Below, piece by piece: positions 4,481 through 36,294 of a stretch of DNA of 64,000 nucleotides. A program made the translations under genes and the position numbers. The stretch covers positions 257,045 to 321,044 of the forward strand of contig CAVVOD010000003.1 of the NCBI GenBank assembly GCA_963749835.1, read 5' to 3'. The DNA is from an uncultured Acidobacteriota bacterium. Lineage in GTDB: Bacteria; Acidobacteriota; Vicinamibacteria; Vicinamibacterales; 2-12-FULL-66-21. Every line of letters begins with the position of its first letter. Position 1 is the stretch's first letter. The notes beneath the pieces are model-generated. The model ran no database searches and had not been told where the DNA came from. It was given only the letters and a program-made list of their open reading frames with translations.

Positions 4481-7114
4481 TTACTGCACCCCACGGCCCG
4501 CGCCCCCACGGCCACGAATCGCCTGCAGCTCCGTGTCCGTCCATGGGCGCGTCCGCGTTTTCGTCATTCCGCGGATCTCCAGGACATCTTCCGCCTCGAC
4601 GGGCGACCCAGTATGCGCCCACTCCCGGCGGATGTACGTCAGGACGGACGCAATCTGCTCGTCATTGAGCGCGCTCCCCAGGGGGGGCATCAAACCGATG
4701 GTCCCCTCTTTGCCGGCAAGCAGCACGCGGGCGGCGGCCCCCGCATCGGGAGCCGTCACGTAGCGTGAGTTCACGAGACTCGGCGCGATCTTCTCTTTTC
4801 CCATGCCGTCCGGCTGGTGGCAACCGACGCAGAGGCTCTTATAGATGTCGGAGCCCGCATCATAGCGCCGCTGCTGCTCTGCGTTCAGTGGAACGGCGGC
4901 CGTCACCACCGCTGCAGGTTTGCCGGTCCAGTCCAGCTTCGCAGCCACGCGCTTCGCCACGCTTCCGGTCTCGTCGTTCACCGCAGCCAGCCGCGTAAGC
5001 TCGAGTGGCTCGGCCGGAAGCGCGACGAGCTTGACGGGCTGCGCGACACCGCGGCCTCCGCCACGCCCTCCGCGTCCGCCGCCCGCAGCGGGAAGGCCGG
5101 TGTCCAGCCCCTGCAGAAGTGCACTCCGCTGCCACGCGGGCGTCGCCTCATCGCCGGCGCGCGCCAGCAGGCGCTGCACCGACGGAACGATCGCGCTCTT
5201 CGCAACGGCGGCTGCCAGCATCGTCACGGCGTCAGCCTCGCCCGCGGCGGGATGCGACTGCAGCACGCGCTCGAGCACGTCTCCTTCCGCGCCCCGCAGC
5301 CCGCTGATTGTGGCATCCACCACAATCTCGTCGCTGCCGTAACGCGAGAGCAGGGTCACGGCAGGCTCGGTCCGCGCGGCCTGCGGCAGTTCACCCAGGC
5401 TCGCTCCAAGCTGGCGCCGCACGGTCCAGGACGGATCGTCCATCAGCTTGAGCACCCCTGCCGTCAGCGGGGCAGTGCCCTCGCGCAGCCAGCGTTCCGA
5501 CAGCCGAATCGCCGCGGCCCGCACGTCAGCGGATTTGTCGCCGAGCGACTTCTGCACGCTCGGCGCGTCGAGCGCGTCGAGGCCGTCCAGCGTCCACAGC
5601 GCGTGCAGCTTGACCCGCCAGTCGGACGTCTGTCCAAGGAGCTTCGTCAGGAGCGGCGTGGCCTCCTTCGCATAGCGCTCGACGATCAGCTGCTGCGCCG
5701 TGTCGCGCCACCAGCCGTTCGGATGCGACAGCGTCTGCACCAGCTGCGCGGTCGTCGCCTTCGAGAGTGCCGGCGCCCGATCGCGCCGCGTCGTATCGTG
5801 GACGATGCGCCAGATGCGGCCGTGCCCGATCGGCTGCTGGAGGTCTCCCGCTTTGATGTAATCCCGCAGATAGTCCGTCCAGTAGATGGCCTCCTGGACA
5901 ACCCCTCGATACATGTCGACGACGTACAGCGTCCCGTCGGGACCTCCGAGCAGGTTCACGGGCCGGAAACGCTCGTCCCATGACGCGAGGATCTCACCCT
6001 TCTTATAGCCGTCCACGGCGGTGAGACGGCCCGCGCCATCGTCCACCACCTTGTATCGATGCACGAGATTCGTCGTCGAGTCCGTAATGAACGCGTCGCC
6101 GTAGAGCTCCTTCGGCAACCGGTCTCCGCGATAGATGACGGGAGTGCCGACGCCCTGAATCGTGACCGAGCTGTCGTCGGGCCGGAAGAACTGATCGCGA
6201 TATCCACGATTCACGCCGCGCGTCGCCCGGATCGGCCAGATCGTCGAGGCCTCGCGCGAGATGAGTGGATCGTACAAACCGCGCGTGCGCGCCAGGTTCG
6301 GGTTCCGTGAGTAGTACCGTGCGGCCACGAAATCGACGAACAGCGGCGCGTCGTTCACATTCCGGTAGATCCGGCCCGCGTCGTCCTGTGTGGCGCCCCA
6401 CTGGCCGCGGCTGAGCGTCGGCTGCGTTTCGAACTTGCCGTCCTTCAGGCGGAGGTGCCAGTCGTGCTCGGACGTGTAGATCGTGTTGTCGAGTCCCCAG
6501 AACAGGCTGTTCGCGTTGTGCTCGATGCTCGCTTCCCCGCGTCCGTAGGTGTTGTTGACCAGTTCCCTGGTGTCAGCCTTGAGATCGCCGTCCGTGTCTT
6601 TCATGAGCCACAGGTTCGGCGGCTCGCCGACGAGGACGCCTTGATCGAGCACCTTCAGCGACCGGGGCAGCACCAGCTTGTCGGCAAACACCGTCCGTGT
6701 GTCCATCACGCCGTCGCCGTTCTTGTCCTCGAGGACGATCACGTTGTTGATCGGCTCGCGCAGATTCATCGCGTTCGCGCCGGCCATGAACCCCGGCATC
6801 TCCAGCACCCAGAGCCGTCCGTCCGCGTCGAAATCGATCGCAATCGGATCCATCACGAGCGGCTCTTTCGCGACGAGCTCCGCATGGTATCCGGGCGGCA
6901 GCGAGAACGTCTTCAACTCCTCCTCTGCTGTCAGCACGGGGGCTTTCGTGGGCGTCTTCCGGACGGGCGGAGGCCACGGTCCGCGCTGCGATCTTGCCCC
7001 GGCGGATCCTGACGCGGGCCGCGAGGCGCGGGCCTGGAACGCGTGCACGACGCCAATCGACGCAACCGCGAGGACAACGAGGCCGGCAGCGACACGGGGC
7101 TTGAGCAAGGGCAT
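4481..7114 (-). CDS. PVC-type haem-binding CxxCH protein with a membrane-bound-dehydrogenase-like N-domain and HEAT-like repeats (paralog 1, no discoidin tail)
   Basis: 877 aa with a signal peptide. N-domain LKTFSLPPGYHAELVAKEPLVMDPIAIDFDADGRLWVLEMPGFM. Also HPNGWWRDTAQQLIV, helical repeats, and a C-terminal cytochrome c motif CVGCHQPDGMG. Contains a GGGRGGRGGGRG insert and an RGRGGAGRG C-terminus. Confidence 0.85.
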   Translation of the reverse strand: MPLLKPRVAAGLVVLAVASIGVVHAFQARASRPASGSAGARSQRGPWPPPVRKTPTKAPVLTAEEELKTFSLPPGYHAELVAKEPLVMDPIAIDFDADGRLWVLEMPGFMAGANAMNLREPINNVIVLEDKNGDGVMDTRTVFADKLVLPRSLKVLDQGVLVGEPPNLWLMKDTDGDLKADTRELVNNTYGRGEASIEHNANSLFWGLDNTIYTSEHDWHLRLKDGKFETQPTLSRGQWGATQDDAGRIYRNVNDAPLFVDFVAARYYSRNPNLARTRGLYDPLISREASTIWPIRATRGVNRGYRDQFFRPDDSSVTIQGVGTPVIYRGDRLPKELYGDAFITDSTTNLVHRYKVVDDGAGRLTAVDGYKKGEILASWDERFRPVNLLGGPDGTLYVVDMYRGVVQEAIYWTDYLRDYIKAGDLQQPIGHGRIWRIVHDTTRRDRAPALSKATTAQLVQTLSHPNGWWRDTAQQLIVERYAKEATPLLTKLLGQTSDWRVKLHALWTLDGLDALDAPSVQKSLGDKSADVRAAAIRLSERWLREGTAPLTAGVLKLMDDPSWTVRRQLGASLGELPQAARTEPAVTLLSRYGSDEIVVDATISGLRGAEGDVLERVLQSHPAAGEADAVTMLAAAVAKSAIVPSVQRLLARAGDEATPAWQRSALLQGLDTGLPAAGGGRGGRGGGRGVAQPVKLVALPAEPLELTRLAAVNDETGSVAKRVAAKLDWTGKPAAVVTAAVPLNAEQQRRYDAGSDIYKSLCVGCHQPDGMGKEKIAPSLVNSRYVTAPDAGAAARVLLAGKEGTIGLMPPLGSALNDEQIASVLTYIRREWAHTGSPVEAEDVLEIRGMTKTRTRPWTDTELQAIRGRGGAGRGVQ

Positions 7115-7178
7115 GGTGACTTGATCTGGCTGCGCATGGGCCGGGCCTGCGATCGAGCAGGCTCGGTCTCGTGGATAT

Positions 7179-8795
7179 CTACTGCACGGGAATCAGGCGT
7201 GCCACCACGCCGGGTGTCGACTGTGACAGGCTCTGGCCGGGCAACTGCATCGTCACGTACAGATATCCGTCGGGCCCGACGATGACGTCGCGGATACGGC
7301 CGAATTGATTGAAGAGCACTTCCTGGTGCGTGACTTTGTCGCCGGAAATCTCGAGACGCCGGAGCTGCTGGCCGGCGAGCCCGCCGACGAAGAGATTGTT
7401 CTTCCATCCGGGATACTTCGTGCCGGAATAGAACGCCATGCCGCCCGGTGCGATCGTCGGCGTGTAGTACACGACCGGCGGGTCCATGCCTTCCTGGGCC
7501 CGCTTGGTGATGCCGGGCTGAAGCCCCATGGTGACGACACCCCAGCCGTAGTTGTGGCCCGGCTCGATGATGTTGATCTCGTCGCCCCCCTGGGGTCCGT
7601 GCTCGGACTCCCACAGCTTGCCGCTGACGGGATCCCACGCAAGCCCCTGCGGATGCCGATGCCCGTAGCTCCAGATCGACGCCACGGCGCCCGCGCGATT
7701 GACGAACGGGTTGTCCTTCGGAACCGTGCCGTCGTCATTGACGCGATGGATCTTGCCGAGCGGATCACCGAGATCCTGGGCGTGCGTCATGTCGTTCTTC
7801 TCGCCGAGCGTGTAGAACAGGTGCCCCTCCTTGTCGAATGTGAAGCGCGACCCGTAGTGCGCGTTCGTCGAGGAGTACAGCTCCGGCTTGGCGCGGAAGA
7901 GGACCTGCTGGTCCGTCCACTCGTTGTTCTTGCTGATCTTGCCGCGCACGATGACCGTCATCGACGGCGGATCGGGAGGGCCGCCACGGCCTCGTCCACC
8001 CTGCGGAGCGGCGGCAGGCGCGGGAGGCGCTGCGGGATCGACCGGCGCGGGGGGGGGCGGCGCGTAGCCGGGCAGCGTCTCGGAGTAGGAGAGATAGATC
8101 CAGCCGTTGCGTGCGTACTGCGGGTGGACCTCGACGTCGAGCAGCCCGCCGTCCTGCTTCTCCCAGACCTTTGGTGTCCCCTTCACCGCGTCCGGCAGCA
8201 TGGCGCCCTTTTCGATGATGCGGAGGCGGCCCGGTCGCTCCGTCACGAGCAGACGGCCATCGGGCAGAAAGGCCAGGCCCCACGGCGTCTCGACATTGCG
8301 CGCGACGATATCGATCTTGAACGTCTGCTTTTCGGTCTTGATGATCTGACCGTTCGGATCGGCCACGTACTGCGGCTTTTCCTTCAGGTTCGCCCCCTGC
8401 ATGCGCAGGTAGGTGACGAGCTGCCAGATCTGCGGCTCGGTCAGCGCGGACTTGAACGCCACCATTTCCGTATTGGGGATGCCGTCGGCGATGATGGCGG
8501 CAATCGACTCATCGTCGGTCGCGCGAGTCCACTTGTCGTCGAAGAGCGTCGGGATCCTGCCACCCTCGAGTCCCGTGCCGTGGCAGCCGGCGCAGGTTTC
8601 GGTATAAAGGGTCGCGGCCGGGTTCCCGCGTCCACCGCCGCGCCCCGAAGGGGCTGCACGCGTCGGTTCGCTGGATGCCGGAGCGGCTGCCGTCGGATTC
8701 TGGGAAGGCGCCGCGGGCGCCTGCGCGAGAGCTGTCAACGTGGCGGCTAGAGTGCCGACGCCGAGAATTCCAGCCGCTGCGAGAAGTCGTTTCAC
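7179..8795 (-). CDS. Cytochrome c domain fused to a PQQ-dependent (soluble aldose/sorbosone-type) sugar dehydrogenase beta-propeller
   Basis: 538 aa with a signal peptide. N-terminal haem motif CAGCHGTG. Propeller segments PWGLAFLPDGRLLVTERPGRL, YGHRHPQGLAWDP and GPQGGDEINIIEPGHNYGWG. Confidence 0.85.
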   Translation of the reverse strand: MKRLLAAAGILGVGTLAATLTALAQAPAAPSQNPTAAAPASSEPTRAAPSGRGGGRGNPAATLYTETCAGCHGTGLEGGRIPTLFDDKWTRATDDESIAAIIADGIPNTEMVAFKSALTEPQIWQLVTYLRMQGANLKEKPQYVADPNGQIIKTEKQTFKIDIVARNVETPWGLAFLPDGRLLVTERPGRLRIIEKGAMLPDAVKGTPKVWEKQDGGLLDVEVHPQYARNGWIYLSYSETLPGYAPPPPAPVDPAAPPAPAAAPQGGRGRGGPPDPPSMTVIVRGKISKNNEWTDQQVLFRAKPELYSSTNAHYGSRFTFDKEGHLFYTLGEKNDMTHAQDLGDPLGKIHRVNDDGTVPKDNPFVNRAGAVASIWSYGHRHPQGLAWDPVSGKLWESEHGPQGGDEINIIEPGHNYGWGVVTMGLQPGITKRAQEGMDPPVVYYTPTIAPGGMAFYSGTKYPGWKNNLFVGGLAGQQLRRLEISGDKVTHQEVLFNQFGRIRDVIVGPDGYLYVTMQLPGQSLSQSTPGVVARLIPVQ

Positions 8796-25872: not shown

Positions 25873-26013
25873 TGTGTGCGTCCTTCTCTGCCGCTCCAGG
25901 TATCCGGCGAGGCTCGTGTTTTAGAATTCTTACCGTTTCACCGCCGAGGTCAAAGCAGAATTTGTGTTGTATCGTTCATGGAGGTTCGCGGGTTTCTGTC
26001 CTGAGAGGTGTGC

Positions 26014-27216
26014 ATGGCGCTGACTGTCACGAAGGATGTGATCCTCCCGGCCACGGTTACCGGATCGTGGCCGCGTCCGCGGTGGTTCGACATGAGCATG
26101 TGGGCGAAGCCGCTCGACACGTGCATGCAGGACATCCGGTTCCGTGAGAAGTTCCAGGATGCGCTCGCGGTGGTGACGAGCGATCAGGAGCGCGCGGGGC
26201 TCGACATCCTGACGCACGGAGATTTTCACTGCGACGAGGACTTCGGGGGCCGGAGCTGGCACCACTATCCGCTGCAGCGGTGGACGGGCTTCGAAGGGGA
26301 CGCGCTGCAGTCGGAAGAAACCCGCAGCGAGTGGCTGCGGTATCCTCCGGGCACGCTGCTGAACGAGATCTACACCGGCTGGCGATGGCCGCACGTCACC
26401 GGGAAGATCGAGCACCGGCCGCTCGGTTACGACAAGATCTGGCGGATTGCCCAGAGCAAGTCGCGAAAGCCGGTCCGGTTCGGCACCTGCTGCTCGCAGG
26501 TGATGGGCCTGTTCCTCGATATCCATACCGCCAAGTACAAGGACAACCGCGAGGTCCTGTGGGACATGGCGGTGGCGATGAACACCGAGCTCCTCGCGCT
26601 GCGCGATGCGGGCTGCCGGTGCATCCAGATTGAAGAGCCGACCCTCCACTTCATGGCGAACACGTTCGGCGCCAAACACGAGAAGGTCAAGTTCATGGTC
26701 GAGTGCTACAACCGCGAAGTGCAGGGGCTCGACGATGTGGAGATCTGGATCCACACGTGCTGGGGCAATCCGAACATGCAGCGGGTGATGGACGACACGA
26801 GCTACGAAGCCTCGTTCGATCTCTACCTGAACGAGATGCGGGGGGACGTCTGGACGATCGAGACGAAGGATCGGGATTTCAGGAACATCGAGCTGTTCGG
26901 GCGTCAGAAGGGGAAGCTGCCGAAGAAGGTCTGCATCGGCGCCGTCAGTCACCGGACGCTGCAGGCCGATCGGCCGGAGGAGGTCGCCGGAGCCGTCCGC
27001 AAGGCGCTCGAGCACATCGCGCCCGAGCAGCTGATCGTGTCGAGCGATTGCGGATTCGGGCGCCAGGGCTGCAACCGCGAGATTGCGTTTTACAAGGCCA
27101 GCGCCATCGCCCAGGGCTGCAACATCGTCCGCAAAGAGCTGGGCGTGGCGCAGACGTATGTGCCCGCCGCCGATCCCGCCCTGCAGATCGATATCGTCCC
27201 GAAGACGGCCCGGTAA
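26014..27216 (+). CDS. Cobalamin-independent methionine synthase (MetE C-terminal / Meth_synt_2)-like protein
   Basis: The track ORF starts at GTG 26008. ATG 26014 follows GAGAGG. Zn-ligand-like contexts: IWIHTCWGN and IVSSDCGFG. About 400 aa, single domain. Confidence 0.8.
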   Translation: MALTVTKDVILPATVTGSWPRPRWFDMSMWAKPLDTCMQDIRFREKFQDALAVVTSDQERAGLDILTHGDFHCDEDFGGRSWHHYPLQRWTGFEGDALQSEETRSEWLRYPPGTLLNEIYTGWRWPHVTGKIEHRPLGYDKIWRIAQSKSRKPVRFGTCCSQVMGLFLDIHTAKYKDNREVLWDMAVAMNTELLALRDAGCRCIQIEEPTLHFMANTFGAKHEKVKFMVECYNREVQGLDDVEIWIHTCWGNPNMQRVMDDTSYEASFDLYLNEMRGDVWTIETKDRDFRNIELFGRQKGKLPKKVCIGAVSHRTLQADRPEEVAGAVRKALEHIAPEQLIVSSDCGFGRQGCNREIAFYKASAIAQGCNIVRKELGVAQTYVPAADPALQIDIVPKTAR

Positions 27217-27249
27217 ATGGGGACACTCACCTTTACGCTAAGTCATTGA
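27217..27249 (+). repeat. Copy 1 of the conserved 33-nt element / micro-ORF MGTLTFTLSH*
   Basis: atggggacactcacctttacgctaagtcattga. It starts immediately after the TAA stop of the MetE-like gene. Confidence 0.8.
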
Positions 27250-27264
27250 AAACACAGGCACGAA

Positions 27265-27297
27265 TTGGGGACACTCACCTTTACGCTAACTTGTTGA
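27265..27297 (+). repeat. Copy 2 of the 33-nt element (TTG start; LGTLTFTLTC*)
   Basis: ttggggacactcacctttacgctaacttgttga. It forms an inverted pair with copy 3, separated by a 30-nt spacer. Confidence 0.8.
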
Positions 27298-27327
27298 TTC
27301 GAAAGCCCGAAAAATCGCGGTTTGTTT

Positions 27328-27360
27328 TCAACAACTTACGCTAAAGGTGAGTGTCCCCAT
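27328..27360 (-). repeat. Copy 3 of the 33-nt element (minus strand; MGTLTFSVSC*)
   Basis: The reverse complement reads atggggacactcacctttagcgtaagttgttga. It ends 18 nt upstream of the creatininase-family ATG. Confidence 0.8.
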
Positions 27361-27378
27361 TTTCGGGAGTGATGAGAT

Positions 27379-28173
27379 ATGAAGCCAGCGACAGTGTTCC
27401 TCGGCGAGATGACGAACCCGGAGGTCGAAGCGTTCCTGACGTCGAACCATACGGTCATCGTGCCGACGGGCGCGACGGAGCAGCATGGCCCGCACGGGCC
27501 CCTCGCGACGGACGTGCTCATTCCCAACGAAATCGCGCGACGCGTGGCCCCCACGATCGGCGCGGTGGTCGCCCCGCCGCTCGCCTACACGCTCTCGTAT
27601 CCCCACATCGGCTTCACGGGCCTCGTCTACATCCGCATTCCGACCTTCATGGCGCTCATCGAGGACCTCTGCGCGTCGTTTGCCGCCTCCGGATTCCGTC
27701 GGATCATCTTCCTGAACGGGCACTACGACAACACGTACGCAATCGCGTACGCGTGCGCCAACGCGGCGGAGCGGATGCCGAAGGGCGTGCAGGCCTTTCC
27801 CGTCAACTACTGGGATGCGTTGAGCGAGGCCGAAGTCGCCGAGTTCTCAGGACTGAAGAACGGACTCCACGCCAATCTGGCCGAGACGTCCGCCGTGATG
27901 GCCATCAATCCCGACCTCGTCGATCTCGAGAAGGCCAACGCGGAGTTTCCGCCGTTCCCGGAGTTCACCGTGCCGAACATCGGCGCCGTGCACTCCGCGT
28001 TCTTCTTCAGCAACCCGGGGTCGGTTCACTGGGCGACGAAGTCAGGGACGTGGGGGGACGCACGGAAATCAAACCCCGAGGCCGGCGAGCGCTACCTCGA
28101 GGCGGGCGTGCGTTCGACGCTCGCGTTGATCGACAACATCGATCGGACCTTCGCCGCGATGCCCCCTCGCTGA
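27379..28173 (+). CDS. Creatininase (creatinine amidohydrolase) family protein
   Basis: 264 aa. Family-typical N-terminus VIVPTGATEQHGPHGPLATDVLI and NGHYDN. Confidence 0.85.
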   Translation: MKPATVFLGEMTNPEVEAFLTSNHTVIVPTGATEQHGPHGPLATDVLIPNEIARRVAPTIGAVVAPPLAYTLSYPHIGFTGLVYIRIPTFMALIEDLCASFAASGFRRIIFLNGHYDNTYAIAYACANAAERMPKGVQAFPVNYWDALSEAEVAEFSGLKNGLHANLAETSAVMAINPDLVDLEKANAEFPPFPEFTVPNIGAVHSAFFFSNPGSVHWATKSGTWGDARKSNPEAGERYLEAGVRSTLALIDNIDRTFAAMPPR

Positions 28174-28272
28174 CGGGCATGCGTCCTGACGTCCCACAAA
28201 CGGATAGTGGGGTCAGACGCCGGTCGTCGGTTTACGTACTGTCCGGGCCCGGAGCGTGGGCGTCGTCTCGGT

Positions 28273-29196
28273 TTATTTGTCGGCAATGCGCGTTGGTGCC
28301 AGCACGTTCATCCCCGGCACCTTGACCGCCACGTTGATCTTGTCGGACGTTTTCTCCCCCTGGCGCTGCGAATACGTGACAGCGTACTGGTTGCGCAGGA
28401 GCGACTGGGCGAGCTGCTGGAGGCTGCTGACGAGCCCGGCAGCCGCGACGATCTCGTCGCGCGTCCCACCCGACTGCTTGGGCCCCTCGCCGAGCACCTC
28501 ACTGAGATTCATGTTTTCACCCAGGAGCCCCGAGGGCTTCTGAATCGCAACGGTGGACCGTATGGCGGAGCTCGACACCTGGACAACGTGAAGCGCGGCC
28601 CCGCTCCTGCGCAGCTCATTGAGGACGTGATCGGCTGGGAGCGTGCTGTGCTCTTCACCGCCGACCGTCAGGGCCAGGATGATGCCGCGTCGCGGACGCC
28701 CCTTCGCCGTGAAGTCGCGGGCAGTCTCCGAGATGCCTTCGAGGAGCTGACCGCCATCCGCGGTCGCCGGACGCTGACCGAGCCGGGCGATGGCCTCGCT
28801 CAGTTCGCGCCCGTCGCCGGTGTAGTCGACGATCTTCTGCGTCTGGCCCGTCACCTCGCTGATGGCGAACTCGGCATTCCCGTGCAGCTTCTCGATGAAC
28901 TTGCCGACGCCGTACCGGAAGAAGCCCGTTCCGTTGTCGTCGACGATGACCGCGATCCGCAGCGGCGCGGCGGCCGGCTCCGCGCTCAGCACCTCGCGGA
29001 CCTTACCGCCGATCTTGACCACGAAGTCGGCGGGCCCGAGATCGGGAACCGATGATCCGACCTTGTCCGTCACGGTGACGTATACCGTCCGGTAAAGGGG
29101 TTCAACCTGCGGCTGCCCTGCCTGCGGGCCGGCGGCACTCGGGCCGACCAGGGCGAGTTGCAGGACGCCGAACGACAAGGCGAGCATCCACGCCAT
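28273..29196 (-). CDS. VWFA-related 'acidobacterial' domain protein, exported
   Basis: 307 aa with a signal peptide. The N-terminal pattern YRTVYVTVTDKVGSSVPDLGPADFVVKIGGKVREVLSAEP followed by a VWA-like fold is what I remember for the VWFA-related Acidobacterial domain family. Confidence 0.7.
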   Translation of the reverse strand: MAWMLALSFGVLQLALVGPSAAGPQAGQPQVEPLYRTVYVTVTDKVGSSVPDLGPADFVVKIGGKVREVLSAEPAAAPLRIAVIVDDNGTGFFRYGVGKFIEKLHGNAEFAISEVTGQTQKIVDYTGDGRELSEAIARLGQRPATADGGQLLEGISETARDFTAKGRPRRGIILALTVGGEEHSTLPADHVLNELRRSGAALHVVQVSSSAIRSTVAIQKPSGLLGENMNLSEVLGEGPKQSGGTRDEIVAAAGLVSSLQQLAQSLLRNQYAVTYSQRQGEKTSDKINVAVKVPGMNVLAPTRIADK

Positions 29197-29241
29197 GGCC
29201 TGACCCCCAATTCCGCGCGTCCCGCGAGTCGCGGGCCGACG

Positions 29242-30663
29242 TTACCGCGTGCCGGATCCCGCCCGCTCCCCCTGCTCGTCCATCATGAGCGGCGGCGGCT
29301 CCGCAGCGACAAGATACTCGAACTCGCGCCGGAATTCCTCTTCGGTGAGTTTTGCCGTCGATGCGAGCCTGGCGACTTCGTGCGGATCCTCGATATCGTC
29401 GCGCCGCAGCCGGATCATGTAGCGCCGCGCAATCGCGTAGCGCGTGGACGAGACGTCCACCAGCCGCACGGCCGTGCGCCCGGTCACGCCGTCCATCATC
29501 TCTGAGAACGGGATCGGCACGAAGTGCCCTCCCTGCATCGAGATCATCGCGGCGTTGCCGCCCGCGAGCAGATACTTCGCGGCACAGTAGCCCAGGTCGC
29601 GGGTGTACTCCATGTCGAACGGGATCGGATCTGCGCACCGGAGCTCGTACCCGATGTTCTTGGCGGCAATCGTGGTCTTGATGCCCAGCCCGCGCAGCCG
29701 CTCGGTGACTTTCGCCTTGAGAATCTCTCCGAGATTGACCTCCGCGATCCGCAGGTGCCCGTGGGCATCGCGCTCCACGTCGGCCAGTCCGACGAGATCC
29801 TCTTCGGCGACGTCGAGCACGACCCCTTCCGCAATAATCGCCACGCCGTCGCGTCGCCCGCCGGCCATGCGCTTGATGATGCTCGCGGTCAGCGTGTCCA
29901 CAATCGTCTTGAGCCGGATCGGGGAGCCGAACTCCTCGGTGATGAGCGTGACCGTCGCCCCGGCCGCCTTGCCGATGCCGAGCGCGAGGTGCCCCGCCTT
30001 GCGCCCCATGGCAATCACGAAATACCAGCGCGTGGTCGTCTTGGCATCGACCATGAGGTTCTTCACGATATCGACGCCGTAGTGTCGAGCCGACTGATAC
30101 CCGAACGTGTCGACGTGCGCCGGCAGGTCGAGGTCGTTGTCGATCGTCTTCGGCACGTGCACGACACGAATGCGGCCGGCGGCGTGCTGCTCCAGCTTCA
30201 TCGCGGAGAACGCGGTGTCGTCGCCGCCGATCGTCACGAGCTGGGAGACGTCGAGCCGCAGGAGCGACATGACCGTGTTCTCGAGCAGCTGCGGATCTTT
30301 GGTCGGATTCGCACGTGCGATGCCGAGGTGCGAGCCGCCACGGAAGTGAATCCGGCTCACCGCGTCGATCGTGAGGGGCATCACGTGATCGATGTCCCCC
30401 TGCATGAGCCATTCGAAGCCGTCCCGAACGCCGACCACGTCGATCCCTTCGAGCCGGGCCCTGATGGTGGCAGCGCCGATGACGCTGTTGATCCCGGGCG
30501 CAGGCCCGCCGCCGACGAGAATTGCAAGCTTGTTATGGTGTTCCACGAGAGTCCTCAGAATACCCGGCACTTCCGGTCCGCCGGCGCTGTAATCGATTGC
30601 AGGCAGCCGGATTATACCTCTACCGCATGCGCGAAGACCGAACCGATCTCCGGCGCCGCTCAC
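29242..30663 (-). CDS. 6-phosphofructokinase (ATP- or PPi-dependent, long form)
   Basis: 473-aa ORF with a GTG start; the true start is uncertain. Motifs: ILVGGGPAPGINSVI, TIGGDDTAFSA, PKTIDNDL. Confidence 0.85.
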   Translation of the reverse strand: MSGAGDRFGLRACGRGIIRLPAIDYSAGGPEVPGILRTLVEHHNKLAILVGGGPAPGINSVIGAATIRARLEGIDVVGVRDGFEWLMQGDIDHVMPLTIDAVSRIHFRGGSHLGIARANPTKDPQLLENTVMSLLRLDVSQLVTIGGDDTAFSAMKLEQHAAGRIRVVHVPKTIDNDLDLPAHVDTFGYQSARHYGVDIVKNLMVDAKTTTRWYFVIAMGRKAGHLALGIGKAAGATVTLITEEFGSPIRLKTIVDTLTASIIKRMAGGRRDGVAIIAEGVVLDVAEEDLVGLADVERDAHGHLRIAEVNLGEILKAKVTERLRGLGIKTTIAAKNIGYELRCADPIPFDMEYTRDLGYCAAKYLLAGGNAAMISMQGGHFVPIPFSEMMDGVTGRTAVRLVDVSSTRYAIARRYMIRLRRDDIEDPHEVARLASTAKLTEEEFRREFEYLVAAEPPPLMMDEQGERAGSGTR

Positions 30664-30714
30664 GGCGCGGCCGCTGACGCGCAGATCGGCCTGCGCGTCA
30701 GGTGAGCTCCGGGA

Positions 30715-31956
30715 CTACGACCGATACGGCTCGCGCCCGGTCCCCTGAATCGGAATGTCCTGCGCCGCCAGCACCTCGTGCTGCAGCGCATACATGCACG
30801 CCGCCGCCGCATCGACGTGCCGGACGAACGCAATCGATCCCTGGAGGATCGGCTTCACCCGCGCACGATCCTGGAGGCGGGCCGGCGGGTACTCGTGTTC
30901 GACGACGAGGTGCGTGTTGGCCACGTCGAGCTTCAGCAGCTCCCGCGCCGCGAGCTGGTGATCGAACCAGTCGACCGACCGGTTCTGCAGGTAAGCGAGG
31001 GGGTCGTGCCGGGCCGTGCCGGGCAGCTCGTGCTCGGCGAGCACGATCTGCTTCTTCCACGCGTTCAGCTGCTCCGCCGGGTTGTCCGTCGGCTTCCCGT
31101 CCTTCCAGTCACCGCGCTCGACCGTCTGGCCGCCGTAGCCCCACTCGGACACGCCTTTGGCGTGCACGACCTGCCCTTTCACGTGGAAGCCGCCGATGAG
31201 GAAGTTGTATCCGCTGTCCTTCAGAAACTGGAAGATCGACCGCGTGTCCTGCCCCATCAGAATGGCGTGCGACGGATCGTAGTGAATCCGGAACTGATCG
31301 CCCACGCCATGCTTCTCGCAGATGCGGTGCAGCGCGATCCACGTTCCCGGCGTGTAGGCGATGTTGTTGTGCCAGATGTCGCCCGTCGTCCAGCCTGGCA
31401 TCGGGCACTGCTCGACACGGTAGGTGAGGCCGCGCGCCTTCGCGTCCTTGAGGAGCGGCACGAACCACTGCTCGAAGTCGAGCAGGTTCTGGTCCATGCT
31501 GTGCTGGTGGTTGCGCCCGACGAACCCGCACACCGCATCAACCCCGAGAAGCGTCGCGGCGTCGAACACGCGATGCATGAAGTCGTACTTCTTGGCACGG
31601 ATGACCGGGTCGTGATGGAGCAGATTGTCGAAGTACCCGATCTCGGAAATGCCGATGCCGCTGGCGTCGAGCGCAGCCTTGACGCGGCGCACGCGATCCT
31701 TGTCGAACGGCTTGCGCAGATCGAGGGTGTTGGCCACGGGGTCGAGCTGCGCCTCGAGCGGAACGTCGCTCTCCGTCGGGTGAAGCGCCGAGGCCAGCTG
31801 GATGTAGCTCGCACCCAGCTCTTTCGCAAATTCCACCCACTCTTCGATCGCGCGGTCAGGGTCCGCATCGCGGATGTCCCGCGGCGTCAATTCCTGGAGC
31901 GCGGCCGTCAGGATGCCGACCTTCATGAACTTTGGTTCGAACGGTTGAATTTTCAT
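30715..31956 (-). CDS. Xylose-isomerase-like TIM-barrel (sugar phosphate isomerase/epimerase family) protein, long form
   Basis: The track ORF is 30715..32067. I trimmed it to ATG 31956 ([20 protein letters not shown]...). The start is 7 nt after the stop of the upstream Gfo/Idh/MocA gene. Confidence 0.8.
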
Positions 31957-31963
31957 AGCGTCT

Positions 31964-33148
31964 CTAAGATTTGTAAGCGACCGTGGTCCACTGGGATCCG
32001 TTGCGCGCGCTCTCGAGAATGGCTTCGACGACGCAGTTCGCGCGGTACCCGTCTTCGAATGTGGCAAATGCCGGTGGATGAGGATCCGAAGGCTTCTTGC
32101 CGGCGGCGATGAATCCGTAAATATCCCGCATCACGTTGCAGAAGGCGTCAGCCCAGGATTCCTGGTGCCCGCCGGGGAGGTGCGCGTAGCGGCCCGCTTC
32201 GGTGTCGAGCAGCGAAGGATCCTTCGCGAGGACTTCGTTGGCCTTGTCGCGGCGTCCGATCCACAGCTGGTTCTGGCTCTCCTGGTGCCATCTGAGCGAC
32301 GCGCTCGACCCGCAGATCTCGAGCTGCAGATCGTTCTTGTGTCCCGCACAGACCTGACCCACGGAAAAGCTGCCCTTGGCTCCGTTGTCGAAGCGCAGCA
32401 GCACCGACGCGAGATCCTCGACCTTGATGTCCACTTCTTCGACCGCCTGGTCGGCTCCGGCGACCGCAAACGCCTCGCGCGATCCCTTCGGCTTCTTGCG
32501 TATCGGGATGACGGTCGTGATGTCCCCCAGCACGTGCGTGATCTTCAACCCGCTGATGTGCTGAGCCAGATCGCACCAGTGGGAGCCGATATCGCCCAGC
32601 GCCGACGAGGCGCCCCCCTTGTCCGGTTCGAGACGCCAGGAATAGTCCGTGTCCTTCAGGAGCCAGTCCTGGAGGTAATGGCCGACGAGAAACGTCGGAC
32701 GCCCGATGTCGCCGCGCGCGATGGCATTGCGCGCCTGCTGCACGAGCGGGTTGCCGCGATAGTTGAACGTGACGGCGTGGACGATGCCGGCCTTGTTGGC
32801 CTGGTCGAGCAGCGTCTTCGCCTCCGCCGCCGTCATCGCGAGCGGCTTGTCGGAGATGACGTGCTTCCCTTTCGCAATCGCCGCGGCATTCACGGGGTAG
32901 TGCAGGTAGTTGGGGGTCGCATTGTGGACCACCTGGATGTCCGGATCGTCCAGCAGCGCTTCGTAGCTTCCATAGGCCTTTCGCGCGCCGAGCGCTTCGG
33001 CCTTCTTTTCAGCCGACGCCTGGCTGCTGCCGGCCACGGCCACAACGTCCACGTATCCCAGCCTGCGGACCGCGTCCACATGATGGGGTCCGACGAACCC
33101 TGCACCAACGATTCCCATCCCAATCCGTTTCACGGCAAAGTCCTCCAC
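31964..33148 (-). CDS. Gfo/Idh/MocA family oxidoreductase
   Basis: 394 aa with Rossmann N-terminus [25 protein letters not shown]. Confidence 0.85.
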
Positions 33149-33150
33149 AC

Positions 33151-33296
33151 GAGCTATCAGCTGACAGCTATCAGCCCTCAGCTTCGCCTGCAGTTTCGAG
33201 TTCCGCGTCAGTTCCCAGTCTTCCGCTTCCAGGTCCCATTCTTTGGCTACTGGACCGGTTACGGCGCCGCTGATAGCTGACAGCTGAAAGCTCCGA
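33151..33296. repeat. Heptamer arrays arranged as inverted arms (CAGCTAT-type left, GCTGATA-type right) around CAGTTTC-type units
   Basis: Left arm: gagctat cagctga cagctat cagccct cagcttc. Centre: cagtttcgagttccgcgtcagttcccagtcttccgcttccaggtcc. Right arm: gctgata gctgaca gctgaaa gctccga. It fills part of the gap between the paralog 4 stop and the Gfo start. Confidence 0.7.
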
Positions 33297-33468
33297 TGCG
33301 CCGCCCAGCATACACCGCCGTCGCGGCCCCCAGGCGCGCGCGTCCGCGCCCTGGTGTCCTGACCGCATGGTTCGCGACATAACTGCCGGGCGGGGCATCC
33401 CGCCTGGCAGCGTTGCCATGCGGGCGCCGCGCTCCGGGACTTATGCCACGATCCACGCGGTCAGGACA

Positions 33469-36240
33469 CTAGCTTCCCGCTCCTGGTCTGTACAACCGCA
33501 GCCGCAGCATCGACCAGGGCGGAGCCCCCTCGACGGATGCTGTCTGCGTCAGCCGCACGAACTTTGCCTGCACGGGAGAGAACCGGATTGCGGTACTCAC
33601 TCCGGTCCCGGCTCCCCTGGCGACAGTCGTCCACTGTGTGCCGTCTGTGGAAATGTCGACGACGTATTCGCGCGGAAATCCTGAGGTCGGCGGTGGCGCG
33701 CCGGCGCCGCGCCCTCCGCCGATGCGTGACGAGTCGAACTGGATCTCCGTGACTGGCGTCGCCTGCGGAAGCTCGACCTGGAACCACATGCCGGGCGCCT
33801 GCGAAGTGCCGCTGCTCCACGTCGCGAAGTTGAACGCCTGGGCAGCCTTCTCCGTGTTGTGGCTCGCCGTCGCTTTCCACCCGGCATCGGCGGGGAGTGC
33901 GGCCGGCACCGATGCGACGAGTTGATCGAAGGTCCAGTTCGCCGTCCGGCTCGAGGTCGCCGCGCGCACGCGCGCGACGTCCGCGGCCGATACGAACGGC
34001 GCGGCGTTACCGTACGTGTTGCGGATGTACGACGCGATCGACGCAATCCACTCATCGCGGTTGGACCCCATGGGCACCATCACGCCACCGGCATAGGCCC
34101 GGCCGTCCAGGGGACCCGTCAGCCCGTGCAGCAGGGTCTTGATGACGTAGTCGGGGTGCCCGGTGATGCGTGGGTTGCCGACGAACGCCGGAGCCATGAT
34201 CGTGCCGGCTGCCGCCCCCGCGAGTGGCGCGCCTCGTCCGTCATCGCCGTGGCACGAAGAGCACAGCTCTTTGTGAATCGCATCCCCGCGCTGCATGGCG
34301 GCAAGCTCGTCCTCCGAGAACGGGTTGTTGCCCGGACGTCCGTAGGTCAGCGCCGGCGGATTCAGGATCTGCCGGCCGACTTCCTGGACGCCGCGCGCCG
34401 GGTTCGCTGCCTGCGCGGTCGCGACCGTCTCCGCAACTCTGGGCTCCTTGAGGACGTTCAGTGTCAGCATCGCCTGGATCACGACGTCCACATCGGTGTC
34501 CTGCGCGAGCCTGCGGTAGTCGCCCGCCAGGGATCGATCGCCGGCTTTATAAAGCGTCTCGCTCACGCGAATCGCCTGTATCCGCATCTTCGGATTCGGA
34601 TCCTCCAGCTGCTGCCGCACGAGTGCGGCATCGAGCGCGCCCAGTCCCTCCAGCGTCCACATCGCATGGAACCGGCCGAAGAGGCTCGGCGACGAGCGCA
34701 CCATCTTCTGCAGCGCCGGGACCACGGATTGGTCCTGCTCGAGGACGAGCAGCTGCTGCGCCGTGTCGCGCCACCAGCCGTTCGGATGATCGAGGTGAGT
34801 CACGAGCTGCGCCGCGGTCTCGTTCAGCATGCGCGGCTGCGTTCGATCGCGCCCGGTGCTCTCGTGCGACAGACGCCAAATCCGTCCGCGTCGCACGATT
34901 TTCGCCAGCTGATACTGATCGATCTTCGCACGCAGGTAGCTGCCCGGCTGGGTCCACGTCCCTTCCTGGATGATCCCGCGATACAGATCGACGATGTATT
35001 CGGTGCCGTCGGGAGCGGTGGCGATATCGACGGGACGGAACAGATGGTCCGTCGATCGAATGAACTCGGAGTGCTCCCACTGGTGCACGTTCTGGAGTTG
35101 CGTGAGCCCCTCGGTCACGACCGGCCTCACGCGGCGCACGATCCGGGCGACCGGTTCGCCATAGAGATAATCGCCGAGCAGATCCTTCGGCATCCGGTGG
35201 CCACGGACGAAGTCGTTGCCCGCGGATCCCGTCACGCTCACAAGCGTCAGATCCGGACGACGTATCGCGCTCGTGCCCGGCTGAAAATCGCCAACCCCCG
35301 AAACGCCCCAGGGAATCTCGAACCCCGGTGCGAGTTGATCCGGCACTCTGAAGTTGCCGTAGTGAATCGGGAACTGGAAGTACGACGGCAGCCCGCTGGC
35401 GCCTCCCTGAAACCACATCTTGCCGAAATCGTCGTGCGTGATCCCCCACTGCGCGCCATTGGTGCCTGTCGGCTCCCGGACAACGCCGTTCGGCGTCCAC
35501 CGGACCCTGAAGGCGTTGTAGGTGCTGTACAGCCAGTTGTCCATGCCCCAGTGGAGGCTGCTCTGCTGATGCTCGACGTTGCCGGCCCGCCCGAAGTTCG
35601 TGGTGAAGAGCTCCTTCTTGTCGGCCACTCCGTCACCGTTCGTGTCCGTGTACCGCCATACCTCATCCTGGTTCGACTCCATCGTCAGAATGCTGTTGGC
35701 GCCGAACGGCAGCACGAACCGCGGAAACACCAGCTTGTCGACGAAGACCGAATGTTTCTCGTACACGCCGTCGTGGTTCACGTCCTCGTGCACGGAGATG
35801 CGTCCGATCGGATCGAGCTCGCCGGTCGCATCCGCATCCTGCATGTAGGCGCGGATCTCGACGACGAACATGCGGCCGTTGCCGTCGAACGCGATTTGCG
35901 TGGGCTCCTGGACGTCAGGCTCGGTGAGAACCGGCTCCATCTTGTAGCCGGGCTGCAGGACGAATCGCTTCTGCTGTTCCGCGGCAGAGACCGCGACAAT
36001 CGGCGGCTTGGGCGTCAGGTCCGCACCCTCGAACGGATCCGGACCACGCCCTCCGGTCCCGCGGGCGCCTGGCACGGGGGGGGCCCCCTGCGGTGGCGGC
36101 GTCGGCGTCGGCGCAGTCTGGACAGGTGCGGCCGACGGTGCCGTCGGTGTCTGCGCGACCACGACGAAGCAGGCGACATACACGCCCAGCGCGGCGGTGA
36201 GCAGCCGCGCGAAGCGCGAGCGGGCAAGTCTGGCGGTCAT
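33469..36240 (-). CDS. PVC-type haem-binding CxxCH / dehydrogenase-like protein with a discoidin-like tail (paralog 4)
   Basis: The track ORF is 33469..36261 (TTG start). The likely start is ATG 36240 (MTARLARSRFARLLTAALGVYVACFVVVAQ). Contains QQKRFVLQPGYKMEPVLTEPDVQEPTQIAFDGNGRMFVVEIRAYM, HPNGWWRDTAQQLLVL and CSSCHGDDGRG. Tail: PGMWFQVELPQ...YVVDISTDGTQW...AKFVRLTQTA. Confidence 0.85.
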   Translation of the reverse strand: MTARLARSRFARLLTAALGVYVACFVVVAQTPTAPSAAPVQTAPTPTPPPQGAPPVPGARGTGGRGPDPFEGADLTPKPPIVAVSAAEQQKRFVLQPGYKMEPVLTEPDVQEPTQIAFDGNGRMFVVEIRAYMQDADATGELDPIGRISVHEDVNHDGVYEKHSVFVDKLVFPRFVLPFGANSILTMESNQDEVWRYTDTNGDGVADKKELFTTNFGRAGNVEHQQSSLHWGMDNWLYSTYNAFRVRWTPNGVVREPTGTNGAQWGITHDDFGKMWFQGGASGLPSYFQFPIHYGNFRVPDQLAPGFEIPWGVSGVGDFQPGTSAIRRPDLTLVSVTGSAGNDFVRGHRMPKDLLGDYLYGEPVARIVRRVRPVVTEGLTQLQNVHQWEHSEFIRSTDHLFRPVDIATAPDGTEYIVDLYRGIIQEGTWTQPGSYLRAKIDQYQLAKIVRRGRIWRLSHESTGRDRTQPRMLNETAAQLVTHLDHPNGWWRDTAQQLLVLEQDQSVVPALQKMVRSSPSLFGRFHAMWTLEGLGALDAALVRQQLEDPNPKMRIQAIRVSETLYKAGDRSLAGDYRRLAQDTDVDVVIQAMLTLNVLKEPRVAETVATAQAANPARGVQEVGRQILNPPALTYGRPGNNPFSEDELAAMQRGDAIHKELCSSCHGDDGRGAPLAGAAAGTIMAPAFVGNPRITGHPDYVIKTLLHGLTGPLDGRAYAGGVMVPMGSNRDEWIASIASYIRNTYGNAAPFVSAADVARVRAATSSRTANWTFDQLVASVPAALPADAGWKATASHNTEKAAQAFNFATWSSGTSQAPGMWFQVELPQATPVTEIQFDSSRIGGGRGAGAPPPTSGFPREYVVDISTDGTQWTTVARGAGTGVSTAIRFSPVQAKFVRLTQTASVEGAPPWSMLRLRLYRPGAGS

Positions 36241-36261
36241 CTGCACTTCTCTCCCGAACAA

Positions 36262-36294
36262 ATGGGGACACTCACCTTTACAGTAAGTTGTTGA
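36262..36294 (+). repeat. Copy 4 of the conserved 33-nt element / micro-ORF MGTLTFTVSC*
   Basis: atggggacactcacctttacagtaagttgttga. It is divergent from, and 21 nt away from, the ATG of paralog 4. This is the same geometry as copy 3 relative to the creatininase gene. Confidence 0.8.

Follow-up and report, generated by a model that had tools for sequence, protein, structure and literature searches.

The 64,000-nt stretch of DNA analysed here (the window; contig CAVVOD010000003.1, positions 257,045 to 321,044) derives from an uncultured member of the Acidobacteriota, and it contains four copies of a short repeat that are, close to certainly, members of a dispersed family of mobile, non-coding repeats of Acidobacteriota. 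Comparative analyses suggest, with a probability of roughly 0.68, that the repeat unit is the non-autonomous end, or terminal inverted repeat (TIR), of a TIRtron, and that it would be mobilised in trans by a RAYT-like enzyme of the HUH-Y1 type. We infer both the enzyme that moves the element and any effect of the element on transcription. An earlier description of the same DNA (the original prediction) had presented the repeat as a conserved 33-nt element that always reads as a 10-codon micro-open reading frame (micro-ORF), and had proposed that it could be a portable promoter or 5' untranslated region (5'-UTR) cassette with a partly MITE-like (miniature inverted-repeat transposable element) layout.

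The repeat unit in the window

The 18-mer TGGGGACACTCACCTTTA is present exactly at 27218 (forward strand), 27266 (forward), 27342 (reverse) and 36263 (forward), against a chance expectation of 0.01 for the window, and four matches were reached in 0 of 100 shuffles. The fourfold occurrence and its positions are thus borne out, and a profile search with a model built from many copies found no fifth copy in the window. The length of the element was corrected from 33 to 35 nt: metagenome contigs that derive from other loci agree with the window over 27215-27249, 27328-27362 and 36260-36294 before continuing into unrelated sequence, and these match boundaries therefore define a 35-nt unit. Its consensus is AA-TGGGGACACTCACCTTTA-SSS-TAAGTYGTTGA, of which the AATGGGG side is referred to as the outer end. 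The copies and their surroundings are as follows.

26008..27216, forward strand: Meth_synt_2 (MetE-like) gene, 402 aa, the upstream flank; its stop abuts copy 1
27215..27249, forward strand: copy 1, a solo 35-nt unit (AA plus 33 nt); outside contigs match this span and then diverge
27263..27297, forward strand: copy 2, left arm of the inverted pair
27265..27361, no strand: the inverted pair as one discrete indel unit, 97 nt
27298..27327, no strand: spacer (loop) of the pair, 30 nt, conserved in no other copy
27328..27362, reverse strand: copy 3, right arm of the inverted pair, with its outer end toward the creatininase gene
27362..27369, forward strand: TTCGGGAG, creatininase leader and Shine-Dalgarno region, outside the mobile pair
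27379..28173, forward strand: creatininase family gene, 264 aa, the downstream flank
36260..36294, forward strand: copy 4, a solo 35-nt unit; start boundary 36260/36261 from contigs of other loci

Much of the anatomy given in the original prediction holds at these positions. The first bases of copy 1 overlap the TAA stop codon (27214-27216) of the MetE-like gene, such that the stop directly precedes the 33-nt form of the copy. Copies 1 and 2 are tandem direct copies, and copies 2 and 3 are inverted around the 30-nt spacer; copy 2 reads TTG because T replaces A before TGGGG. Copy 4 lies between the start of a DUF7133/cytochrome-c gene (ATG 36240, reverse strand) and the stop of a xylose-isomerase-like gene (36420, reverse strand). 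Copies 3 and 4 are 18 and 21 nt, respectively, from the ATGs at 27379 and 36240, and both intervening spacers hold TTCGGGAG. GC content dips to 0.475 over 27200-27399, compared to 0.60-0.70 around it, and each of the four window copies reads as ATG or TTG followed by nine codons and TGA.

A dispersed repeat family

A genome scan for the 18-mer, using one genome per species, revealed a dispersed family with at least 42 loci among the matches listed, nearly all of them in two Acidobacteriota metagenome-assembled genomes (MAGs), JALZOC01 and JANMWI01. Single matches in Alloprevotella, Kroppenstedtia and Pyrinomonadaceae (loci L004, L010 and L018) were taken as chance; by our own calculation, approximately 17 chance matches to the 18-mer are expected in 596 Gb. 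At L018, an IS200-like TnpA with a YIANQESHH motif (subclass 1.2 type) is encoded at approximately 7123-7644 on the reverse strand, about 4 kb from the probably chance 18-mer. A scan of viral contigs with a 17-mer gave no matches, and a literature search for the unit sequence returned unrelated primer matches only.

By profile search, 72 copies were gathered and aligned, 19 of which were found without requiring the exact 18-mer. Unit positions 3-11 are invariant across the alignment, and GGGGACAC is invariant in all 72 copies. Positions 19-21 (window 27233-27244), located between TTTA and TAAG, are restricted to G/C and are hypervariable (CGC, CGG, GCG, GGC, CAG and others); these triplets usually mismatch between the two arms of one pair, which places a 1-nt bulge in the hairpin. 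In JANMWI01, a longer variant of approximately 75 nt terminates in CCGGATCG. The family is also abundant in the soil metagenome run X2, where bins of the window element have a word depth of 208-622 and the flanking genes approximately 7-8; when locus L042 is included, the element bins span 208-753, which is roughly 25-90 times the value for the flanking genes.

Units are found as singles, as tandem repeats (for instance, at L011 and L012), or as inverted pairs with their outer ends outward. Inverted pairs account for about half of the copies, and solo and tandem units together are equally common. The 21 pairs in MAG loci, together with the pair at L043 and the window pair, are 77-177 nt in length; the pairs fold at -40 to -90 kcal/mol as RNA, and their spacers are unrelated between copies. 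The window pair folds to a hairpin with -29 kcal/mol as DNA (z = -8.2) and approximately -53 kcal/mol as RNA, and is followed by TTTT. A single unit folds at only -1.2 to -1.4 kcal/mol, and its best self-pairing (TAATGGGG/CACCTTTA, 6 of 8 positions, z = -1.7) is likewise weak; a hairpin within one unit was considered and rejected as not significant. An attC-like or CRISPR-like reading was rejected on the anatomy alone, as it is the arm sequence that is conserved, not structure alone, and there is no regular array. Covariance-model searches for an RNA motif produced no Rfam 15 match at the gathering score in the whole window, with a best E of 0.19 within 27100-27450.

The copies are intergenic. 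When genes were called by a crude GC3-based method, 28 outer ends lay no more than 40 nt from a gene end, and 11 were equally close to a gene start. Many of the neighbouring stop codons are a TAA made at the junction itself (T plus the AA of the unit), and CCGA(A)n precedes the unit in 14 of the 72 copies. At least three T are present among the first four bases after the pair in 11/22 instances on one side and 7/22 on the other. No consistent target-site duplication was observed at the 21 pairs, where the flanks only prolong the inverted repeat (AA...TT). GAA|TT and CCGA(A)n are candidate target sequences.

One pair of the ~75-nt variant differs from the remainder in what it encloses. At L022 (1712-2915), a complete gene for an LLM-class flavin oxidoreductase (336 aa) lies between two inverted units with outer ends outward, which are 64 and 51 nt from the start and the stop of the gene, a geometry like that of the transposase in a TIRtron. 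The oxidoreductase gene may have been captured as cargo, or the units on its two sides may be solo units that are independent of each other.

Presence and absence between strains

Strains differ precisely in whether they have the 97-nt pair. A 640-nt contig from run X2, approximately 94% identical to the window, joins 27264 straight to 27362, with copy 1 present and the pair absent; the ends of this empty site read TT..TT and leave a 2-nt ambiguity. A contig from a second run, X1, represents another allele without the pair, and copy 1 is kept in the related strains of both runs. Since TTCGGGAG is present in the pair-less X2 allele, at copy 3 it forms part of the creatininase leader and not of the element; the ortholog at L043 carries TTTGGGGGAG where the window has TTCGGGAG. 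At the second window locus, the X2 strain retains copy 4, but has 28 nt in place of the adjoining 117 nt.

Orthologues of the MetE-like gene were compared in 80 metagenome loci. The element is present only in the closest of these, L043 (93% amino-acid identity), and the other 79 are without it. At L043, an inverted pair lies between the same two genes as in the window, with an unrelated 83-nt spacer and with copy 1 absent; the two genes are 86% and 81% identical to those of the window at the nucleotide level, whereas the arms are 94-97% identical. In the same ortholog (L043:2520-2720), the MetE-like ORF, lacking its own stop, continues for 9 codons into the element (...SSERGHSPLA, then stop), ending at the internal TAA of the arm. 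As the ORF ends inside the arm, the repeat rewrites the C-terminus of the MetE-like protein.

In five of the loci without the element (L046, L048, L053, L054 and L056), other long, hairpin-forming simple repeats are located just 3' of the MetE-like orthologue, for example GTGAATTGG...CCAATTCAC arms, CAACTCCCAACC...GGGAGTTG arms, and GCGGAGCACGC in tandem. Therefore, several unrelated repeat types use this position in soil Acidobacteria.

Association with RAYT-like transposase genes

RAYT-like genes that have TIRs instead of REP (repetitive extragenic palindromic) sequences on their flanks were described by Di Nocera et al. (2013; PMC3733652), who named them TIRtrons and TIRYTs. In their account, many TIRs of TIRtrons have the motif GGGGWSAS in common, the repeats are found singly, as dimers and in clusters, and a distinct group of TIRYTs is defined for Acidobacteria. 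The invariant GGGGACAC, near the outer end of the unit, fits GGGGWSAS.

The core of the unit is identical to a motif on the flanks of RAYT-like genes. At L032, in a Polyangia MAG of 50% GC, the repeat (T)AATGGGGACAC(T/A)CACCTTTAAAA is present four times around a RAYT-like gene, which scores 23.3 bits against Y1_Tnp (cut-off 23) and 50 bits against NCBIfam REP_Tyr_transpos, short of the cut-off of 80. An exact copy of the window 18-mer lies 329 nt beyond the stop of this gene, which is the canonical downstream position. Homologues of the gene are approximately 310 aa in length, many are named RayT by their sources, and they have NHYH and YVELNPVRAG motifs. In all eight RAYT-like gene loci that were fetched, an A-run, GGGACA[CGT]T and a T-run flank the gene in inverted orientation; the upstream copy in the ~310-aa family is found approximately 80-95 nt before the ATG, and the downstream copy 210-330 nt past the stop on the other strand.

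Several further observations were made at the RAYT-like gene loci. At L032, a zeta-toxin/AAA gene and a small upstream ORF (4554-5742) occupy the place of the RAYT-like N-terminus and the upstream repeat. At L123, L126, L129 and L131, a TTGACA-like box is located 9-10 nt after the upstream repeat of the ~310-aa RAYT-like genes; given this adjacency, the repeat overlaps the likely promoter of the transposase gene, and the GTTGA tail of the window unit may be a relic of such an overlap. On the 1.68-Mb contig of L128, arrays of GGGACACT-containing repeats surround the RAYT-like gene, five copies upstream and eleven downstream (5745-5930 and 7150-7830), with a spacing of approximately 20-110 nt. 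RAYT-like genes and their flanking repeats adjoin a WYL-domain regulator gene at L131 (1-5578) and L132 (429-1406), and the gene at L131 is also beside type I-E CRISPR-Cas genes (Cse2, Cse1, Cas3).

In one case, the unit itself physically adjoins a TIRYT-like gene. At L042, from the MAG with many copies, the contig end encodes the C-terminal 66 aa of a protein that is 41% identical to rba2408 of R. baltica and 36-39% identical to gbm2474, both of which Di Nocera et al. (2013; PMC3733652) list as TIRYT proteins (Additional file 5). The stop codon of the fragment and the inner end of a unit are separated by 18 nt, and this unit turns its outer end away from the gene, like the repeats at the other loci. 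In X2, a single contig of low depth covers the gene fragment, and the adjoining unit is present at approximately 700-fold depth. When the six-frame translations of the window and of all loci were searched with tblastn, profiles and phmmer, transposase genes were found only at L032, L042 and the RAYT-homologue loci.

Proposed origin and mobilisation

These observations are best accommodated if the unit derived from the TIR of a TIRtron, that of a TIRYT gene with GGGGWSAS-type TIRs. The TIRYT would act in trans, by cleavage and joining of single-stranded DNA, and such chemistry would be expected to leave minimal or no target duplication. The A-rich outer end often makes or abuts a TAA stop codon, and pairs put a strong hairpin, often with a short T-run, between genes, with transcription termination or stabilisation of the upstream mRNA as possible consequences. 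The micro-ORF reading and the closeness to start codons are by-products.

A broader proposal is more tentative, and is held at somewhat below even odds. It states that long RAYT-like TIRYTs keep genome-wide cognate repeats (tens to hundreds) in uncultured soil Acidobacteriota, that the core GGGGACACTCACCTTTA is base-identical across Acidobacteriota and a Polyangia MAG, and that the module is a 35-nt, non-palindromic half-site that inserts beside existing hairpins or copies, rather than a REPIN doublet. If true, 'domesticated replicator' systems of the REPIN-RAYT type would reach a new enzyme group, a new phylum and a different unit architecture.

Several points weigh against a TIRtron origin. 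No intact transposase gene with the exact unit on both sides was found in the window or in the other acidobacterial loci examined. The gene at L032 is N-terminally truncated relative to its family, and its other repeat copies are direct and not inverted; that at L042 is interrupted by the contig end, such that only one flank is visible; and the two genes belong to different RAYT-like subfamilies. Long proteins with NHYH and YV[DE]LNP motifs constitute subclasses 2.1 and 2.3 of Quentin et al. (2018; PMC6006769), which that paper lists as not REP-associated. Invariance of the 18-mer is in part a matter of ascertainment, because most copies were found by exact match to it. Additionally, the replicating unit may be the 35-mer rather than the doublet, since the pair spacers in window-type genomes are unrelated.

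Alternative explanations

Two alternatives concern the expression of sequence in or beside the copies. That a 10-residue peptide, MGTLTF(T/S)(V/L)(S/T)(C/H), is really translated has next to no probability. The claim that the element always reads as a micro-ORF is correct for the window, where all four copies have a possible start codon, and an ATG with a TGA at codon 11 is present in 51 of the 72 copies, most of which were found by exact match to the 18-mer. It fails for the family: of the 19 profile-found copies, only 8 keep ATG and TGA at codon 11, 11 have lost the ATG and 8 have ACG, and the in-frame stop is lost in 8/72 copies overall. Non-consensus bases at codon positions 1, 2 and 3 number 75, 82 and 33, so that third positions are the most conserved, which is the opposite of a coding signature, and the variable codons switch residue class. 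Furthermore, copies 1 and 2 have no preceding Shine-Dalgarno sequence, one arm of each pair is antisense to any passing transcript, and at L043 the unit is read in a different frame, in which it supplies the tail of the MetE-like protein. The '10-codon ORF' arises by accident from a DNA site that is itself conserved. A portable promoter or 5'-UTR cassette driving the gene beside the outer end is also very improbable. It was suggested by copies 3 and 4, which are separated from start codons by 18 and 21 nt that include TTCGGGAG, and the CCGA(A)n before 14/72 copies could be read in the same way. However, outer ends face gene ends more often than gene starts (28 versus 11), no sigma-70-like promoter was called at either window locus, TTCGGGAG persists where the pair is absent, and the TTGA tail is directed inward, away from the adjoining gene.

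The remaining alternatives retain the repeat as a DNA or RNA element and differ in what maintains it. A classical MITE, which would have arisen by deletion from an insertion sequence of the DDE type (IS630, IS5 or Tn3-like) and would move by cut-and-paste via terminal inverted repeats of 33-35 bp, is unlikely. The inverted layout of copies 2 and 3, the behaviour of the pair as a precise indel between strains, and TA or TTAA-like flanks at some copies are consistent with it, and the arms presumably resemble Tn3-family ends (GGGG...ACGCTAAG). The MITE-like view of the pair in the original prediction was in essence correct, in that the element is mobile, non-autonomous DNA; however, a clear target-site duplication and a conserved spacer are absent: the 21 pairs have no consistent duplication and one empty site leaves no more than the 2-nt TT ambiguity, the spacers are unrelated, so that the pair is not copied as one conserved element, and solo and tandem units are as frequent as pairs. 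A Tn3-like end with a 5-bp duplication, and TA or TTAA duplications, were each tried and rejected, as the apparent matches only extend the inverted repeat. In approximately 300 kb of loci around copies, no full-length insertion sequence with the same ends and a DDE transposase was found. The sole unit pair of more than 1 kb, the 1.2-kb interval at L022, holds the LLM-type oxidoreductase gene and no transposase, and for that reason was rejected as an autonomous element. Overall, a REP/TIR-type element of a tyrosine (HUH-Y1) transposase is better supported than a classical DDE-type MITE. A sequence selected for a function in the host, such as a bidirectional terminator, an mRNA-stabilising hairpin, or a site for host-protein binding or uptake (similar to the DNA uptake sequences, DUS, and uptake signal sequences, USS), is the least improbable of the alternatives, though still unlikely. 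The pairs are at gene ends and fold strongly, a short T-run comes after 11/22 of them, other long hairpin-forming repeats occupy the same place in orthologous loci that lack the element, and the arms are better conserved than the neighbouring genes. In contrast, about half of the copies are solo and without structure of their own, presence varies even between close strains, and the core motif has a specific association with RAYT-like gene flanks. A simple terminator scan made no call at either window locus, the loop and stem of the pair lying outside the limits of that scan. For an uptake site in particular, a 35-nt, intergenic-only unit is unlike known uptake sequences.

Comparison with known systems

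The practical consequence for annotation is that units should be masked as repeats, with no small ORFs or promoters called from them. They explain odd TAA stops and short C-terminal extensions, such as that of the L043 MetE-like ORF, and are a marker of recent genome change in abundant uncultured soil Acidobacteria. The family also supplies a concrete sequence and many loci with which to ask whether TIRYT-type transposases act on non-palindromic ends.

The TIRs of TIRtrons, as described in PMC3733652, are similar to the unit in that it is not self-complementary, has the GGGGWSAS motif (as GGGGACAC) close to the outer end, is found singly, as dimers and in clusters, is present in Acidobacteria and, at L042, lies beside a TIRYT-like gene with its outer end distal. 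The unit differs in being high-copy, where that paper characterises TIR families as "moderately abundant" and TIRYTs as "less productive", and in being seen on one flank only, with no intact TIRYT gene between two units. The ~310-aa RAYT-like family shares the inverted flanks of A-run, GGGACA[CGT]T and T-run, and includes the L032 member with the exact 18-mer; it is closest to subclasses 2.3/2.1 of Quentin et al. (2018), as assigned by motifs and length and not by phylogeny. In most sampled loci of this family the motif is found only beside the gene, with the exception of the L128 arrays, and in this it is unlike the unit.

With the REP and REPIN-RAYT systems of Proteobacteria (Nunvar 2010; Bertels and Rainey 2011), the family shares short, high-copy intergenic repeats, hairpin-forming inverted doublets, an association with a relative of the HUH-Y1 transposases, presence/absence between strains, and arms that are better conserved than the genes nearby. 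Unlike a classical REP, the unit starts with (A)ATGGGG, has a GT[AG]G or CGTC tag at neither end, and is no imperfect palindrome of 20-40 nt. Similar to a REPIN, two inverted units with a short spacer form a hairpin (z = -8.2 for the window pair); the doublet spacers are unrelated in JALZOC-type and window copies, which is unlike a REPIN, and yet the 97-nt pair is one indel.

Class 3 TnpA-Y1 enzymes with CnGA-footed hairpins are reported from Acidobacteria and Planctomycetes, with approximately 600 copies in Solibacter usitatus (PMC6006769). These are likewise acidobacterial, high-copy repeats tied to a Y1 enzyme, and CCGA precedes 14/72 units; however, the unit forms no hairpin and a CnGA foot is absent from most copies. 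No class 3 gene was seen in the loci examined, in which no search was aimed at class 3. The Correia and DUS pairs of Neisseria are similar as intergenic inverted repeats that are able to serve as terminators and to alter the expression of neighbouring genes, whereas Correia elements are conserved throughout and have TA duplications, and DUS are 10-12 nt and are also found inside genes. The kind of element is thus already known, and the 35-nt sequence is a new member of it that opens no new category.

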